Below are positions 15,001 to 33,000 of a stretch of DNA of 64,000 nt, piece after piece. The first letter of the stretch is position 1, and every line of letters begins with the position of its first letter. The stretch lies in NCBI GenBank assembly GCA_963846575.1, contig CAWJWJ010000001.1, forward strand, positions 256,001 to 320,000, written 5' to 3'. This stretch comes from an uncultured Nitrospiraceae bacterium (GTDB lineage: Bacteria; Nitrospirota; Nitrospiria; Nitrospirales; Nitrospiraceae). The position numbers were made by a program.

Positions 15001-18000
15001 TCAAGGCCGCGTTTCCTGCGAGGATCGCGGCCCCCTCCACTACAGCGGCTGCTCCCCGTCCCGGGAAGGACTGAAACGCCTCCGCTTCAGCCAGAGGGAT
15101 GAGACGGTCTCCTGCCGATCGCACGATCGCCTCCGCCACCGGATGCTCCGACGAAGCCTCGAGCGAGGCGACCAGCCTGAGTACCCCTCGCTCGGACCAG
15201 GCTCCGCCCTCCGCCAGGATGATGTCCGTCACCGCCGGTTTCCCTTCCGTGATCGTGCCGGTCTTGTCCAGTACGACCGTCGTAATGTCGCCGGCCCGCT
15301 GGAGCGCTTCTCCGCCCTTGATCAAGATGCCTCCCTCGGCGCCCCTGCCGGTCGCTACCATCACTGCGGTCGGAACGGCCAGTCCCATGGCGCAGGGGCA
15401 GGCAATGATCAGCACTGCGACCGCCGCGGCGAAGGCCTGCACGACTGACGCCTGCTCCACCCCCACCATCCAGACCACGAACGTCAGGAGCGATAGTCCC
15501 ATCACGATCGGCACGAAGATGCGGCTGACCCGGTCGGCCAACTTCTGAATCGGCGCCCGTGAACCCTGCGCGTCACGCATCAGCCGGACGATGTGGGCCA
15601 GGACGCTCTGCGCCCCCACCGTGGTGGCCTGATACCGGAATGCCCCGGACCCGTTCACCGTGCCGCCGATGACCCGGTCTCCCGCCTGTTTCTCGACCGG
15701 CATCGCCTCACCGGTCAACATGGACTCATCGACCCGGCTCTGGCCGGACAACACATCGCCGTCCACCGCGATCCGCTCACCCGGCCGCACCACCACGATA
15801 TCACCGCTCCGCACGGCATCGACCGGCACGTCGATCTCGAACCCCTCCCGCACGAGGCGAGCCTGCTTGGGTTGCAGGGCCGCCAACCGTCGCAGCGCCG
15901 CCGAGGTCTGGCGTTTGGCCCGGGCCTCCAGCATCTGGCCCGTCACAATCAGGGCGACGATCACCACCACCGCTTCGTAATAGACGTCCGGCCGGACGCC
16001 GTGGCGCAGAAAAAATTCCGGAGTGATGGTGGCGGCAACCGAATAGACAAACGCCGCGCCCGTCCCCACCGCCACCAAGGCATTCATGTCGGCTGACCGG
16101 TGCCGCAACGCGGACCAGGCCCGCACATAAAAATGCCGCCCCGTCGATCCCATTACCACCGCGGTCAACCCCATGAGGACGTAGGACCAGACCGCCGGCC
16201 GGACGACATCCAGCCACGAGGCCATCCACTCCATGATCGACATGAAGTATCCTGCGCCATGCGGGCCGGATTCGTTCGCGACCATCAACGGTGTGGACAG
16301 CATCATGGCCAACAGGCCGGCCGCTCCGCTCCACATGGCCTTGCGACGAAGGGCACGATACTCATCGGCTTGCGCGCGATCCTGCGCCTCCTGTTCGTCG
16401 AATGAACTCTCGTGCTGTGCCGGATGCGCGGCCTCGTATCCGGTTCGATTGATGGCCGCGATCAACGAGTCCTCCGAGGTCACGGAGGTGTCGTAGGTAA
16501 TCACGGCCTGCTTCAACATGAGATGGACGGACGCCTCGACGACGCCTGGTTCTTTTTCCAGGAGGCGCTGGACGCGGCCCTGGCAAGCCGCACAGGTCAT
16601 GCCCTGCACCGGAATATTCACCTTCCTCAAACCCGTCGTCCGCTGCTCCTCCGCATGACGGGATGTGGCAGGCCCTGGACGGTCGATCGTGATGAGCGGC
16701 CCGACTGGCTCAACCGAAGGCTCCGCCTTCCCGCTCGAGATCGTTATTGCCTTCATGCCGCCCTCCCGACCGGCCGGGCCTCGTAACCCGCCTCCTGCAC
16801 CGCCAGGGCGATCTCGATTGGCGCAATCTGTTGTTCGTCATATGTCATGAGGGCCTCCCCGACCTTCACGGTTGTGACCTCAACGCCATCCAGTTGCGTC
16901 AAGGCCCTGGTCACCTGTCCGACACAGTGCCCGCAGGTCATCCCTTCGATCTTCATGATCAGTTCTTTCATAGTCCGCCTCCCGGTTGCGTGAACGGTCC
17001 CGAGCGGGCCCCATGCCCGATCGAACCGCTCCGTCACAGTCCAAGACGGACAGGGAGGAAAAACATTACAGTGGAGGATTGTTCCTGAAGACCGTTCATG
17101 AAGGTGAGCAGTCAGGGGGAGGTGTTCTTTAGAGTCAGAGAGCGGGGATGATCACATGAAGTGGGGGGACATCATTGTGTTCCACCGGCGCAGCAACCGG
17201 ACTTCCCCTGATCGCGAGTTCCTTCTCCTCCACTGGGGCCCATGCGTCCTTGCCCCGTGCCGCCTCCAGATCCCATCGGGCCTCGGCTGCCCTTCCCGGG
17301 CATACCTGCTCGCGGCCCCTCTTGCCGGCTGAAGGTTCGCGCGTAGTGCATGAGCGCCCAGATCTCCTTGTCCGTGAATTGCTCGCCAAACCCGATCATG
17401 GAGGTGCCGTGCGAGCCATGCTTGATGACCCAGAACACTTCGCCTTCGGTCCGGTGCCGCCAGAAACCCTGCTGTTGAAAATTACGGGGCGCCGGCGCAA
17501 CCCGCTCCGCGAAGGGGCCGTCGCCGCCCCCCTCCACCCCATGACATGTAAAGCAGGTGCCCTTGCCCTGATAGAGTGCCTTGCCCTGGCCGATCGTTGC
17601 AGGCGAATCCGGCAGGGGACTCCTGAGGGCCTGCGCCTCGGCCAGTTTGTCTGCCGGCACACGGGGCCGCATCATGTCCGTCTCGGCGGCCAGGACGCCC
17701 ACCGGGAGCGCGAGCAGAACCGTCATCAACATTTCAGTCATGCTGCGGGGGTACCCTACCGGCATCACGAACTCCTTTCTGCACGCCGATCCGTCCTGAA
17801 CGCCTCTTGCATTCTCCTACCGGACGGACCGGATGGTCCCGCCGCGATGGACCATGCGGAGCCTGCCGCCGGAACCTCCATCGCGTGGATGCAGCGGACA
17901 GAGAAATCGAAATTCCTCGACGGCTCCTGGTGGCTGATGCGCTTCCAGGCGGGCGGTACTCACGATGGCACGAATGGTCTCCCCGGACGCCAGCGTCACC

Positions 18001-30000: not shown

Positions 30001-33000
30001 CAAGGCCCGGCCGGACCCACCCGCCGAAGAATGAACATGTGCAGAGCCACACCGCCGAGGAGGACCGCGGGAAGAAACAACACGTGGACGGCGAAAAACC
30101 TGGTGAGGGTCAAGGCGCCGAGCGTCTCTCCGCCGCGAAGCACGCGCGCGACGAAATCGCCGACGAACGGCACCGTCCCCGCCATGTTGATTCCGACCTG
30201 CGTCGCCCAATAGGCCGTCTGGTCCCAGGGCAACAAATACCCCGTGAAGGCGAAGGTCATAATGAGGAGAAACAACACCATGCCCACCATCCACATCGCC
30301 TCCCGCGGAGCCTTATATGCCCCGTAGAGAAACGTTTGGAGCATATGGAGCCCGATCGCCACGACCATGGCCGACGCGCCCCAATGGTGCAGCCCGCGCA
30401 CGAACCAACCGAAGAGCACCTCTGTTTCGATGAAACGGACGCTGTCGTAGGCATGGTCGGGGGTCGGCGCGTAGTACACCGCGAGGAACATGCCGGTGGC
30501 GGCTTGCAGCACGAACAGGAACAGGGTGGCCGAGCCGAATACATAGATCCAGCTGGCCCCGCCGGGGATGGGCTCATCGAGCAGCGTGCGCTGGACCGGC
30601 TTTAAATTCAGTCGGCTATCCAGCCACTCATACGGTCGAAACGCCATGCCGACTGCTCCGGGAATCGTTGGCGCGAGGAATGGTGCTCCCCCGCGTCCGT
30701 GAGATCAGGACCGCCGTCCCCGAGGACCGGTCTTCACAACTCCACGCTCTTCGCCAGGCCGGTCCTGAATTCCTTGTACAGGACGAGCAGTCGTCCGTTC
30801 TCCACCTTCGCCGGCAGGAGATCCAGCGGACGCGGAGCCGGCCCGCCCAGGACCCGGCCGTCGATGTCATACATGCTGCCGTGACAGGGACAGAGAAATT
30901 TCCGTGAGGCGTCATCCCAGCGGTATCCGCATCCCAGGTGCGTGCAGATCGGAGAAAAGACCTTGATGTCTCCCTCCGGCTGCTTGACCGCCCAGACCGC
31001 CTTGTGCGCTTTGGTCTCCATCCATCCGTCACGGAAGGTGGTGACATGCTCCAGCTGAGTAGGTTCTCCCAGAGGCAATTCGTCGACCGGCCCGACATCC
31101 GCCCAGGTGCGGCTCCGGCGCGTAAAGGCCGGCGAAATCAGCGCACCGAGCAGCGGAACAGCCAGTCCGATGCCCACGGCTCCCGCCGCGGCGAGGGTGA
31201 CCCAATGAAAAAATTTCCGGCGGGACCCGACCGGAGTCGAGAACCCGTCCGACGGCTCATGGTCAGGCTGGTGCTGTTGGCTCGGCAATGGTGGTCGCCC
31301 CATTCAAATGCCCGCTTCCACGGAGAACAACCGGGGCCGGCGGCGTATCGCGCCCCGTCGAAGTGGTCCGCGAAGTGACCGGCGTCCGCCCGCGCCGGAC
31401 CTGAGGGAAGGTCCGGCGGCCGCCGCCAGGCCCTTAGGATTCGATATCCAATCCGAGACCGATCCAGGCCCGCAACAGATCATGCCGGGTGATGGAATAG
31501 GCCACGCTGCCGTTCTGGCTGACGGGAAGATTGTTCAGGCGCTTCTCCTCCATCAGGCGCACGGCCTCATCGATGGTGGTGTTCGCCGTCACCGAAATGT
31601 GCTCTTTCACCATGATCTGCTCGGCCGTCATCTGGCTGAGTTCCTTGTTGGCTTGGAGGGCCTTGAGCACATCGAACTCGCTGATGAAGCCGATGAACGT
31701 GCCCTTGTCGTCGACCACCGGCGCGCCGGACGTATGGGTCGACAACAGCTCCACCGCGATCGCCAGGCCGTTCTGCCCGGAATGGAAGAGCATTTCGTTC
31801 GTGCCGACGATCTGGCCCACCGTCTTAAATCCACCACCGGGAACTCCAGGCATTGTCCTTGTCGTCATGACCGCCTCCTTCTGATGGCTGTCTTCCTGCT
31901 GTCACGTTTCCCGGGTTCCGGCTGACCCTCGCGGGCAGGTGTTGATGCCGGCCAGTTTCCAGGCCGGGCAGAAGCCGAGCGCCCCGGTGACCAGCGCGAT
32001 CATGCCGAGCGCCAGCGCGAGCCCCGTTCCCAGCGGCGGAAGACCGGCAAAGGCCCCGATTCCGATCAAGAGTCCACCGACCACGATACGGATCGACCGT
32101 TCCGTCCGGCCTACATTGCATGTCATAGGACGCTCCTTCTGATTTCGCTCGACCGCCGCCCGAGCCGTCTTGCCTGCGCAGGCGGTCTGCACGGAGACTC
32201 CGCGGTTGGAGAACGATTCGCGGTCCCGCCCGGACTCACTCGTGTGTGGAGAACCGGTACATGTCGTGACACGTGGTGCAGCGCGCGGTCATGCTCGACA
32301 AGCGGTTCAAAATTTGAACGGACGATTCTCCCTGCGCAATGCCGTCCGCCAGGTGATCCATGTCTCTGTGAATCGACATGCCCATCTGCTTAAACGCAAG
32401 GGGCAGCTTCACCATGATGACCGGATTCACATCCGCCGCCATTTCCATTCCAGCCGCGCGAGCCGCGCTTTCCGCCGGTTTGAAATTCTGATCCGGACTG
32501 CCCAGGACCGTCACGACACCATGTACCGCCTTGAGCAAATGCCGCATCTCATCCAACACCGCCTCCCGTTCCGTCGGAGCCAGCGCGATTTCCGTCCTCC
32601 TGTCTGTTCCCGGTCTGGTCTGCCCCAGAATAAACAAGGCGACCATGATCCCGAGCGTGATCACCCAGAGAACCAGAGACCCCAACCCGAACAGGCGCCA
32701 ATTCATCGTACGATTCGCTCCCGTCGCTGAGGGAGAGGGGAGGCGCGACCCGCTGTCGAGCGGTCCGCAGGTATCCCGTCACATCGCGGTTCTCTTCATC
32801 TGAGAGAAGAAGTTTCCACGTACCCCTCCCCCCTCCCACTAACTCCATCCCTCGATCCAACCTGCCGTGAGGCGAGAGAACCGCCCCGTGCAGTCCTCCC
32901 GCCCCCCACGACCGGATCGTCCTCCACCGTCAGGTGGATTTCCGGATATCGATGATCTTGCCTTCTTCGTTCAATTCCACCGTGATGCCCATTTCCCTCT

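Follow-up and report, generated by a model that had tools for sequence, protein, structure and literature searches.

Nitrospira encode a second complex III, CIII_2, which has been described in PMC6606698. At NITMOv2_3959-3961, a Rieske protein and a fused cytochrome b/c are accompanied by a diheme cytochrome and followed by OsmC, sorA, sorB, and a multiheme cytochrome. The diheme protein (NITMOv2_3959), whose gene adjoins that of cytochrome b in N. moscoviensis, is labeled QcrC in N. moscoviensis, N. defluvii, and the table of a 2025 survey, in which the row for thiosulfate dehydrogenase (TsdA) is left empty. The same survey places SorAB mostly in lineage IV; sorAB genes are already known in Nitrospira, with no linked phenotype, and an assimilatory role was once suggested for them. 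SoxC and SoxD rows have likewise been filled for many Nitrospirales.

Characterized TsdA enzymes include those of A. vinosum (4v2k/4wq7), C. jejuni (biased toward tetrathionate reduction), and M. purpuratum (TsdBA). According to passages of PMC4423706, thiosulfate is bound by the main-chain amide of Gly221, Arg119 is invariant, Ser127 is invariant in TsdA and absent in SoxA, and the Arg109Ala substitution raises Km just 2.6- to 5-fold, with 75 to 85% of kcat retained. A tsdA region with cytochromes and sulfur transport genes, for which thiosulfate use was proposed, is described for the nitrite oxidizer “Candidatus Nitrotoga” in passages of PMC9239080; Nitrotoga belongs to another phylum, the region is an ecotype-specific island, and those passages mention neither a bc complex nor SorAB.

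A 17-gene cluster that includes CIII_2

We analyzed a window of 64,000 nucleotides from the genome of an uncultured Nitrospiraceae bacterium. The cluster comprises 17 genes, all on the minus strand and counting a trxC remnant (Table 1). The components listed in the first-pass annotation (Rieske protein, cytochrome b/c fusion, two SUOX-fold molybdoenzymes, TsdA-family diheme protein, OsmC, DsrE, Cu,Zn superoxide dismutase, and further cytochromes) are all present, as are CxxCH motifs in eight proteins, numbering 1, 1, 4, 2, 2, 1, 1, and 1. The GC content of the region (0.60 to 0.64) matches that of the window. Because a gap of 742 bases precedes the last three genes, a single transcript for all 17 is only putative.

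Table 1 Features of the cluster and its upstream flank (window positions)
Feature	Position	Strand	Evidence or remark
CBS protein, YgaP-like membrane protein, cytochrome c'-like protein; conserved upstream flank, outside the cluster	31434..32706	-	
Rieske subunit of CIII_2	30734..31303	-	PF00355; motifs CTHLGC, CPCHGSMY; PMC6606698
Fused cytochrome b/c of CIII_2	29310..30647	-	PEWY; one CxxCH, no further Cys
soxC-like sulfane dehydrogenase gene (g00287), broken; accessory insert	27891..29165	-	Open frame 28077..29165
SoxD-like monoheme cytochrome c, intact; accessory insert	27338..27904	-	2xts_B, E 1.7e-43
trxC remnant: zinc ribbon retained, active-site part lost, final residues in another frame	26790..27158	-	PF21352
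Monoheme cytochrome c	26344..26709	-	
TsdA-family diheme protein, putative lipoprotein (QcrC by annotation in relatives)	25270..26115	-	PF21342 above cut-off; two CxxCH
OsmC-like protein, steadiest TsdA neighbor	24786..25196	-	PF02566
SorA-type sulfite dehydrogenase, twin-arginine N terminus	23589..24770	-	2blf_A, E 1e-68; NF052245, 325 bits (below cut-off, 600)
SorB-like diheme cytochrome; start overlaps sorA stop	22975..23592	-	NF052246, 47 bits (below cut-off, 93)
Tetraheme cytochrome c	21526..22941	-	4 CxxCH
Cu,Zn superoxide dismutase, signal peptide; recurrent accessory member	20904..21494	-	PF00080; ligand motifs
DsrE-family sulfurtransferase-like protein	20452..20814	-	PF02635
Monoheme cytochrome c, weak cytochrome 579 likeness	19735..20358	-	NF033864, 121 bits (cut-off, 280)
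Cupredoxin-like exported protein	18501..19052	-	Atlas feature matches 0.93-0.95; PF13473 in 35% of first cluster; no match in Pfam search
Cupredoxin-like exported protein (lead only)	17817..18401	-	Atlas feature match 0.93; no match in Pfam search
Monoheme cytochrome c	17172..17768	-	73% identical to 19735-20358 product over 124 residues

The first two genes are the already published CIII_2. The Rieske boxes, the four heme b histidines, PEWY, and the cytochrome c domain are all found, and the only cysteines of the fused protein are those of its CxxCH, so heme ci is absent. A close copy of the fused protein occurs in 36/39 genomes of the genus to which the window belongs (“the genus” below), and its CIII_1 paralogue lies on contig C2. 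Like the NITMOv2_3959-3961 locus, the window carries the bc pair with a diheme cytochrome and, downstream, OsmC, sorA, sorB, and a multiheme cytochrome in that order; the order Rieske-cytochrome b/c-TsdA-OsmC-SorA is common to 11 of the 12 cluster loci of the genus that were examined. The window differs in lacking a YeeE pair at the TsdA locus and in the insertion of soxCD and trxC between cytochrome b and TsdA.

The presumed complex III subunit is a TsdA-family protein

The window diheme protein matches PDB TsdA with an E value of 1e-50 and is 41% identical to A. vinosum TsdA; its predicted model (pLDDT, 88.9) superimposes on 4v2k with a TM score of 0.90 and an rmsd of 1.7, a far better fold match than that to actinobacterial QcrC. 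Sequence and fold thus agree with the earlier assignment to the TsdA family. As to SoxAX, for which no family search was made, the TsdA query detected no paralogue in the genome at an E value of 1e-6.

Pocket residues described in parts of PMC4423706 were transferred through alignment with PDB TsdA. In common with the A. vinosum, C. jejuni, and M. purpuratum proteins, the window copy has two CxxCH motifs, the Cys/His ligand of heme 1 (Cys128, equivalent to Cys123), the methionine of heme 2 (Met235; Met236), Arg124 (Arg119), Ser132 (Ser127), and the equivalent of Arg224. Unlike them, it has an N-terminal cysteine, invariant among the copies compared, which suggests a lipid anchor; Arg109 is replaced by serine (Ser114; codon at 25776), and Gly221, as throughout the genus, by an acidic residue, here glutamate (Glu220; codon at 25458). 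It also differs in its neighbors (OsmC, SorAB, DsrE, and CIII_2), and its activity is a prediction. Both heme ligands, Cys123 and the methionine, are kept in 155/155 unique rows of the alignment, and Ser127 is replaced by Asn or Gly in 15 of the 32 genus rows. Distant family members carry Arg or Lys at the Arg109 position in 121/137 cases and Gly at Gly221 in 114/137; since both positions vary within the family, membership of the window copy stands. Its status as a canonical enzyme is in doubt.

TsdA is decoupled from the bc complex across the order

The TsdA family is present in 143/301 genomes of the order and in 33/39 of the genus. In genus g2, it occurs in 72/80 genomes versus only 19/80 with the fused cytochrome b/c; the proportions are 4/15 versus 12/15 in g6 and 10/98 versus 44/98 in f2. 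Cytochrome b lies near TsdA in 17/102 loci outside the genus, and one genome of the genus (L050) retains bc-OsmC-SorA without TsdA. If QcrC were an obligate subunit of CIII_2, it would co-occur with Rieske and cytochrome b, and this it fails to do: TsdA is decoupled from the bc complex. Hence, the first-pass reading of the cluster as a self-contained respiratory branch with its own bc complex is not upheld; the bc pair is CIII_2, separable from TsdA at the level of both locus and genome, and the cluster is a mosaic of three layers.

The gene context of the TsdA family across the order is sulfur related. The steady neighbors are OsmC, DsrE, and a multiheme cytochrome, often with SorAB and a pair of YeeE (PF04143) sulfur transporters; of 104 loci outside the genus, OsmC was found at 91, DsrE at 90, the multiheme cytochrome at 83, and Cu,Zn superoxide dismutase at 25. 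These data bear on the possibility that the diheme protein is merely QcrC, the cytochrome c subunit of CIII_2, with a sulfur role in no lineage. Existing annotation and the adjacency to cytochrome b in N. moscoviensis favor it, and an electron-carrier role for the acidic form would overlap with our own explanation. We nevertheless consider it scarcely probable, given that a cytochrome c domain is already fused to cytochrome b, that L050 and g2 separate the two, that the fold is far nearer TsdA, and that all YeeE-linked copies (48/48) keep the full thiosulfate pocket.

Another possibility is that the function of the module is to take up and distribute sulfur for biosynthesis, with YeeE as importer and DsrE and OsmC as carriers, any redox gain being incidental. 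YeeE-family proteins are, according to portions of PMC11582611, importers of thiosulfate or of other sulfur species, and the assimilatory role once suggested for SorAB points the same way. Nonetheless, the genus retains the module without YeeE, even though two other YeeE pairs are located on contig C2 of the window genome. Moreover, tetrathionate, the product of TsdA, is not a step of assimilation. Sulfur acquisition as the main function therefore appears highly improbable.

Acidic substitution of Gly221 occurs in the absence of YeeE

All 32 TsdA copies of the genus lack YeeE, and all 32 have Glu or Asp at Gly221. Outside the genus, an acidic residue is found at this position in 15/123 rows; a residue neither Gly nor acidic occurs in just 2 of 155, and 5/137 distant family members are acidic. 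YeeE accompanies 0/46 acidic copies versus 48/104 Gly221 copies, leaving 56 Gly221 copies without it. Among the 54 columns invariant in YeeE-linked copies, Gly221 deviates most strongly without YeeE (16/72), followed by one Phe (9) and by Ser127, Arg119, and one Asp (7 each). On a tree built after removal of the trait columns, the acidic residue maps to 11 changes, of which at least 6 are forced (range, 6 to 11), while purifying selection persists (dN/dS, 0.079 versus 0.074). Among independent pairs, the association of YeeE with the pocket is never reversed and is not significant (median P = 0.25; any pocket change, P = 0.125).

The altered pocket may mean that the genus enzyme no longer acts on thiosulfate. 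However, the contact with Gly221 is made by the main-chain amide, so a side chain at 221 need not block the site, and the mild kinetic effect of Arg109Ala also counts against a disabled pocket. Nearly all acidic copies keep Arg109, Arg119, Cys123, and Arg224, which fits retained catalysis.

SorAB and the accessory inserts

The SorA-type protein keeps the equivalents of Arg55, His57, Cys104, and Tyr236, which we take to be catalytic, as do 79/79 cluster-type copies; the Arg and Tyr positions coincide with mutant PDB chains. The SUOX fold, the dimerization domain, and an adjacent heme subunit are all present. Starkeya SorAB (2blf) is the best structural relative, with the same four residues, twin-arginine leader, and adjoining heme partner; the window pair differs in that the partner is diheme and both proteins miss the NCBIfam equivalog cut-offs (Table 1). 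The N. moscoviensis orthologue of the SorB-like gene is annotated as subunit B. Sulfite oxidation by this genome is credible, with the subthreshold scores and the lineage IV bias of SorAB in the 2025 survey weighing on the other side.

A second sulfite-oxidizing enzyme had been proposed in g00287, with the Mo domain of nitrate reductase as best match. We rejected this candidate: its best solved relative is Paracoccus SoxC (2xts_A; E value of 1e-70 versus 5e-21 for nitrate reductase), it sits before soxD, and the genome has no SoxYZ. Compared with 4/4 relatives, soxC has a 1-base insertion at ~28210 and a 1-base deletion at ~28073, with a stop between them; the dimerization domain is present in shifted frames, and the shortened ORF scores 405 bits against the TIGR04555 cut-off of 420. 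The indels may be assembly errors. As in Paracoccus, both SoxCD subunits are present and adjacent, and each has its counterpart chain in 2xts as best structural match; the window differs in the broken soxC and in the missing carrier, SoxY and SoxZ both numbering 0 in a genome that is 99.9% complete (the profiles were positive in Thermus controls). SoxB yielded just subthreshold family matches in the genome (280 and 276 of 550 bits), and SoxY occurs in 1/39 genus genomes. The trxC remnant lacks the WCGPC part; TrxC is intact in 4/4 relatives.

A proposed auxiliary sulfur-oxyanion module

Building on these observed gene identities, residue states, and distributions, the explanation we favor, with slightly more than even confidence, combines CIII_2, a sulfur-oxyanion module, and accessory inserts, serving an auxiliary role rather than full lithotrophy. 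CIII_2 would join the quinone pool to the periplasmic cytochromes c. The family-wide periplasmic module (TsdA, in some loci a YeeE pair, OsmC, in many SorAB, then a multiheme cytochrome, DsrE, and a cytochrome c) would also feed electrons into these cytochromes c, with no need for CIII_2. The third layer consists of soxCD, trxC, sodC, and the cupredoxins, with soxC and trxC broken in the window. SorAB would scavenge a toxic oxyanion by oxidizing sulfite to sulfate, the electrons passing to a terminal oxidase or into reverse transport via complex III. YeeE-linked Gly221 TsdA would be a working thiosulfate/tetrathionate oxidoreductase, and thiosulfate oxidation is likely in N. moscoviensis-type loci. 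In the genus, loss of the YeeE pair would have been followed by a carboxylate occupying the anion seat, with lowered or changed thiosulfate turnover, and TsdA would be kept mainly as a Cys/His-heme redox carrier or for another substrate.

The first-pass annotation went further, proposing that the genome gains energy from thiosulfate via TsdA and from sulfite via SorAB and that CIII_2 is dedicated to connecting these reactions with the quinone pool. For the sulfite half, the SorA residues are kept; the thiosulfate half is weakened by two altered pocket positions and the absence of YeeE, leaving thiosulfate oxidation by this genome doubtful. The shared gene order, the frequency of TsdA and CIII_2 in the genus (33/39 and 36/39), and the retention of the catalytic Cys and Arg119 speak for the proposal, as does the thiosulfate couple (+198 mV, as given in part of PMC9562282), which compared with nitrite (+430 mV) and quinone (~+58 mV) would make reverse transport cheaper. 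The broken soxC, the lack of SoxYZ, and the order-wide decoupling of bc and TsdA speak against it, and TsdA by itself yields one electron per thiosulfate. We regard it as unlikely.

Electrons might instead run from quinol through CIII_2 and the cytochromes to TsdA, which would reduce tetrathionate as a low-oxygen electron sink. The Asn-Met at heme 2 is that of C. jejuni TsdA, and the overall transfer, from quinol at +58 mV to tetrathionate at +198 mV, runs downhill. Yet Asn is the commonest residue there (108/137 distant members) and so is not diagnostic; most TsdA loci outside the genus lack the bc pair; and the CIII_2 Rieske motif carries the Ser and Tyr that are associated with high potential, so the final transfer is uphill. 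This reductive mode seems very unlikely.

Returning to the auxiliary module, a bolder and tentative extension, on balance doubtful, is that many nitrite-oxidizing and comammox Nitrospira use thiosulfate through a TsdA named QcrC and that several lineages, including the whole genus, have independently self-plugged it. Thiosulfate would then be an unrecognized auxiliary donor, reducing the uphill step to quinone from ~370 to ~140 mV, and a carboxylate in the thiosulfate seat would leave TsdA either as a Cys/His-heme redox carrier or with a different substrate. Nitrospira are dominant nitrifiers, and no phenotype has been linked to their sulfur genes; roughly half of the genomes of the order carry a TsdA-family gene, which curated annotation treats as that of a complex III subunit. 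A cheap test is possible, the protein being a periplasmic cytochrome whose canonical (Gly221) form is transcribed by N. moscoviensis. An active TsdA, if demonstrated, would place thiosulfate among the electron donors that nitrifiers use and would inform the role of the second complex III, and the repeated Gly-to-acid change would offer a natural experiment on switching off or retuning the active site of the TsdA/SoxA family.

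Gene content of the locus

Pfam and NCBIfam identify in the cluster a Rieske protein, a cytochrome b with fused cytochrome c, a dihaem protein with a SoxA/TsdA domain, OsmC, DsrE and a Cu,Zn-SOD. The gene table bears out the single-strand arrangement, and CxxCH motifs occur in eight of the proteins, in the numbers per protein counted in the first-pass annotation. Nitrospira is the source of the nearest named homologues. The window shows no step in GC, and a tRNA scan of its 64 kb found none, so a recent island was rejected. Promoter and terminator scans were not above chance (3 versus 3.2 and 6 versus 10.4). 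The genome has two NxrA-like genes; a search for AMO gave no match, and its control query was silent as well.

Features of the locus and its surroundings (window positions unless a contig is named; the window is C1:256001-320000)
Feature	Position	Strand	Remark
Cluster	17172-31303	-	17 genes
Rieske protein, complex III copy 2	30734-31303	-	
Fused cytochrome b/c	29310-30647	-	
Space after cytochrome b	29166-29309		Only 144 bases; relatives hold 1-2 extra cytochrome c genes here
SoxC-like gene g00287	28077-29165	-	Whole soxC-like region 27891-29165
trxC	26790-27158	-	Active-site part deleted
Dihaem TsdA	25270-26115	-	
Cu P-type ATPase, CopZ-like chaperone	14321-17037	-	Directly downstream of cluster
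His-rich repeat protein	32796-33872	-	No Pfam family; paralogues on C1 and C2; frame change near 32995 gives spurious tail
TolC-type gene	45687-47116	-	Frameshifted versus relative G023
TauE/SafE sulfite-exporter gene	49042-49821	-	Frameshifted versus G023
Split gene	C1:449962-454369		Four frame changes; counterpart a 1471-residue exported G023 protein
SUOX-fold gene (L218)	C2:1112717-1113862		40% to cluster SorA; twin-arginine stretch
Remoter SUOX-fold genes	C2:691672-692478, C2:353146-353502		

The cluster is a genus-wide and mostly known locus, with accessory genes that are broken in this genome. According to passages of PMC6606698, the second complex III (CIII_2) of Nitrospira moscoviensis has, besides a Rieske protein and a fused cytochrome b/c, one additional dihaem cytochrome c, and each of the three is expressed above the median. 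Multiples of the median reported there are 5.9 for the Rieske gene (NITMOv2_3961), 1.6 for qcrB (3960), 1.3 for the 837-base "cytochrome c subunit" gene (3959, encoding the 278-residue protein P0094), 1.2 and 0.9 for two YeeE/YedE genes (3958 and 3957), 2.4 for an OsmC-family gene (3956), and 3.2, 1.6 and 1.1 for sorA (3955), sorB (3954) and a multihaem gene (3953). Nitrospira sorAB likewise appears in parts of the literature, there without a phenotype, and section 20 of PMC12342949 places SorAB mostly in lineage IV. The window SorA is closest to Starkeya SorA and falls under the NCBIfam cut-offs; it keeps the equivalents of the Arg, His, Cys and Tyr residues, as do all 79 of 79 cluster-type copies.

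Two cupredoxin-like genes and the Cu,Zn-SOD precede the copper ATPase and chaperone genes, and CopA likewise lies 3' of the cluster at locus L034. The assembly of relative G025 carries the cluster twice, on C3 and C6 (L033); in the C6 copy the Rieske and cytochrome b genes have frame changes that probably reflect assembly error.

The dihaem protein belongs to the TsdA family

The protein labelled QcrC in relatives is a TsdA-family protein that travels with sulfur-handling genes and not with the bc complex, which is a new point. Its best solved relatives are chains of Allochromatium vinosum TsdA (E 1e-50), and a structure predicted from 134 sequences (pLDDT 88.9) resembles 4v2k with a TM score of 0.90 and an rmsd of 1.7; an earlier model from 67 close sequences (pLDDT 54) was set aside. 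That the protein is a plain QcrC is the least probable of the alternatives, as the 134-sequence model matches 4v2k far better than it matches actinobacterial QcrC.

TsdA is present in 33/39 genomes of the genus and in 143/301 of the order Nitrospirales, a total that probably includes a genome, G278, left out of the tallies by genus and family. Outside the genus, 102 TsdA loci have 5 kb or more of upstream sequence, and cytochrome b stands at 17 of them; in the 104 loci that extend 5 kb or more on the downstream side, the neighbours include OsmC (91), DsrE (90), a multihaem cytochrome (83), a YeeE pair (41) and SorA (40); TsdA is therefore not tied to CIII_2. Genomes with TsdA versus those with the fused cytochrome b/c number 23/25 versus 24/25 in the host's genus, 72/80 versus 19/80, 19/26 versus 8/26 and 4/15 versus 12/15 in three other genera (g2, g5 and g6), and 10/98 versus 44/98 in family f2. 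One genome of the genus has the bc genes, OsmC and SorA without TsdA (L050). The self-contained branch with its own bc complex, proposed in the first-pass annotation, is not supported: the bc pair is the published CIII_2, to which TsdA is not tied. Prediction of a complex between TsdA (residues 40-270) and the cytochrome b/c fusion gave a score of 0.00 and a mark of 0.32, and speaks neither for nor against an association. The wider reading, that the genome has an energy branch fed by thiosulfate and sulfite, we consider unlikely. In family f2, four loci (L186-L188 and L190) have a TsdA with Lys109 and no cluster neighbours, a separate context.

Automatic JGI names are often "thiosulfate dehydrogenase", and Table S6 of PMC12342949 enters the KEGG number K19713 under two names, giving 8 genomes for "QcrC" and 0 for TsdA; the likeness is thus visible in databases, yet the protein has not been taken as TsdA. 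Among the papers listed by literature searches, none assigns TsdA to Nitrospira in its title or abstract; the papers that first described the N. defluvii and N. moscoviensis genomes, and the supplement of 10.1101/138586, may bear on this.

Repeated change in the thiosulfate pocket

In A. vinosum TsdA, according to sections 18-19 of PMC4423706, three residues (Arg109, Arg119 and Ser127) bind thiosulfate together with the backbone amide of Gly221, and Cys123 is catalytic; Arg109Ala raises Km 2.6-5-fold and reduces kcat little, Arg119Ala is severe and Arg224Ala near neutral. Mapped through the chain alignment (chain number + 27), the window TsdA keeps Arg119, Cys123, Ser127, Arg224 and Met236, but carries Ser in place of Arg109 and Glu in place of Gly221. 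The earlier assignment as a TsdA-type thiosulfate dehydrogenase stands for the family; that the protein is a canonical enzyme is doubtful. Ser109 is private to the window copy, with Arg in the other 31/31 genus rows and in a 90% identical relative. That the protein serves a tetrathionate reduction module is improbable.

The pocket was compared at 172 loci, a non-random sample (32 from the genus, the 80 best P0094 matches and 60 hand-picked from an order-wide search) that came to 155 rows after removal of 17 duplicates. An acidic residue (Glu or Asp) occupies position 221 in 32/32 genus rows and 15/123 others; the remaining non-Gly residues are one Ala and one Ser. In the wider family (150 matches minus 13 too close or partial), Gly occupies this position in 114/137 and an acid in 5/137. 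Where enough downstream sequence is present (151 rows), 48/104 Gly copies and 0/46 acidic ones are followed by a YeeE pair, and all 48/48 YeeE-linked copies have Arg109, Arg119, Cys123, Ser127, Gly221 and Arg224. On a quick IQ-TREE tree of 131 rows, acidic 221 takes 8 changes, at least 7 of them forced; further trees give 9 (at least 5 forced) and, with the pocket columns removed, 11 (at least 6 forced). Fifty-four columns never vary among YeeE-linked rows; in the 72 YeeE-less rows, changes at these columns are commonest at Gly221 (16), followed by a Phe (9) and by Ser127, Arg119 and an Asp (7 each), against a median of 0. Independent pairs never show the reverse of the association between YeeE and position 221, but they are too few to make it significant: the median p is 0.25, or 0.125 when any change in the pocket is counted.

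Genus copies have a median dN/dS of 0.079 and YeeE-linked copies one of 0.074, so a clade of acidic pseudogenes was rejected. Faster decay of the window TsdA was also rejected, its private changes amounting to 3.1% versus 3.7-4.6% in cytochrome b, SorA, SorB and the tetrahaem protein. A literature search for a Gly221 variant of TsdA found no such claim, and the repeated acidic change, as read from alignments, is a new point. As Gly221 contributes its backbone amide, a side chain there would not necessarily prevent thiosulfate from binding.

Probable decay of accessory genes

Pfam and NCBIfam agree with the earlier note that the cluster encodes two SUOX-fold molybdoenzymes, but the two are not a sulfite-oxidising pair: g00287 is SoxC-like by its structural match to 2xts_A (SoxC; E 1e-70), which also rules out its identity as a nitrate reductase. 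A SoxD-like gene comes next, and the dimerisation domain of g00287 is present but out of frame, with one base gained near 28210, one lost near 28073 and a stop in between relative to 4/4 relatives. SoxC-like genes (E < 1e-100) occur in 18/39 genus genomes; they lie inside the cluster at 3/12 loci compared, plus two judged from coordinates, and at 0/104 TsdA loci outside the genus. This genome yielded no SoxY or SoxZ and only SoxB-family matches below the cut-off; SoxY is found in 1/39 genus genomes. At nine loci (L035-L043), soxCD occurs without soxYZ as an orphan pair with open frames, at many different sites across the genus.

Against a 400-kb stretch of G023, 202 orthologues include five real frameshifts, a sixth case having been excluded as a tandem paralogue. 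Two of the five fall in the window, which holds ~14 of 204 matched genes, so that local decay of accessory genes appears likelier than random error.

Proposed working of the locus

The window has no YeeE pair; two others on C2 lie beside genes of apparent metallo-hydrolase/rhodanese type. Pfam and passages of PMC11582611 describe roles of YeeE in sulfur handling; that the cluster is a module for sulfur assimilation is nevertheless more doubtful still than tetrathionate reduction. The scheme we favour, with slightly better than even confidence as a whole, is as follows. SorA, exported folded, would oxidise sulfite and pass electrons to SorB and on to multihaem and monohaem cytochromes, from which they may reach a terminal oxidase or, in an uphill step via a complex III, methyl-plastoquinone (~ +58 mV in part of PMC12324825; the thiosulfate couple is put at +198 mV in part of PMC9562282). 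Ancestral TsdA would have added thiosulfate as a donor and shared the handling of sulfur with DsrE, OsmC and a YeeE pair. Once the YeeE pair was lost, selection on the pocket may have relaxed or shifted, with a carboxylate repeatedly arising beside the pocket arginines; the retained Cys/His haem would fit an electron carrier or another substrate.
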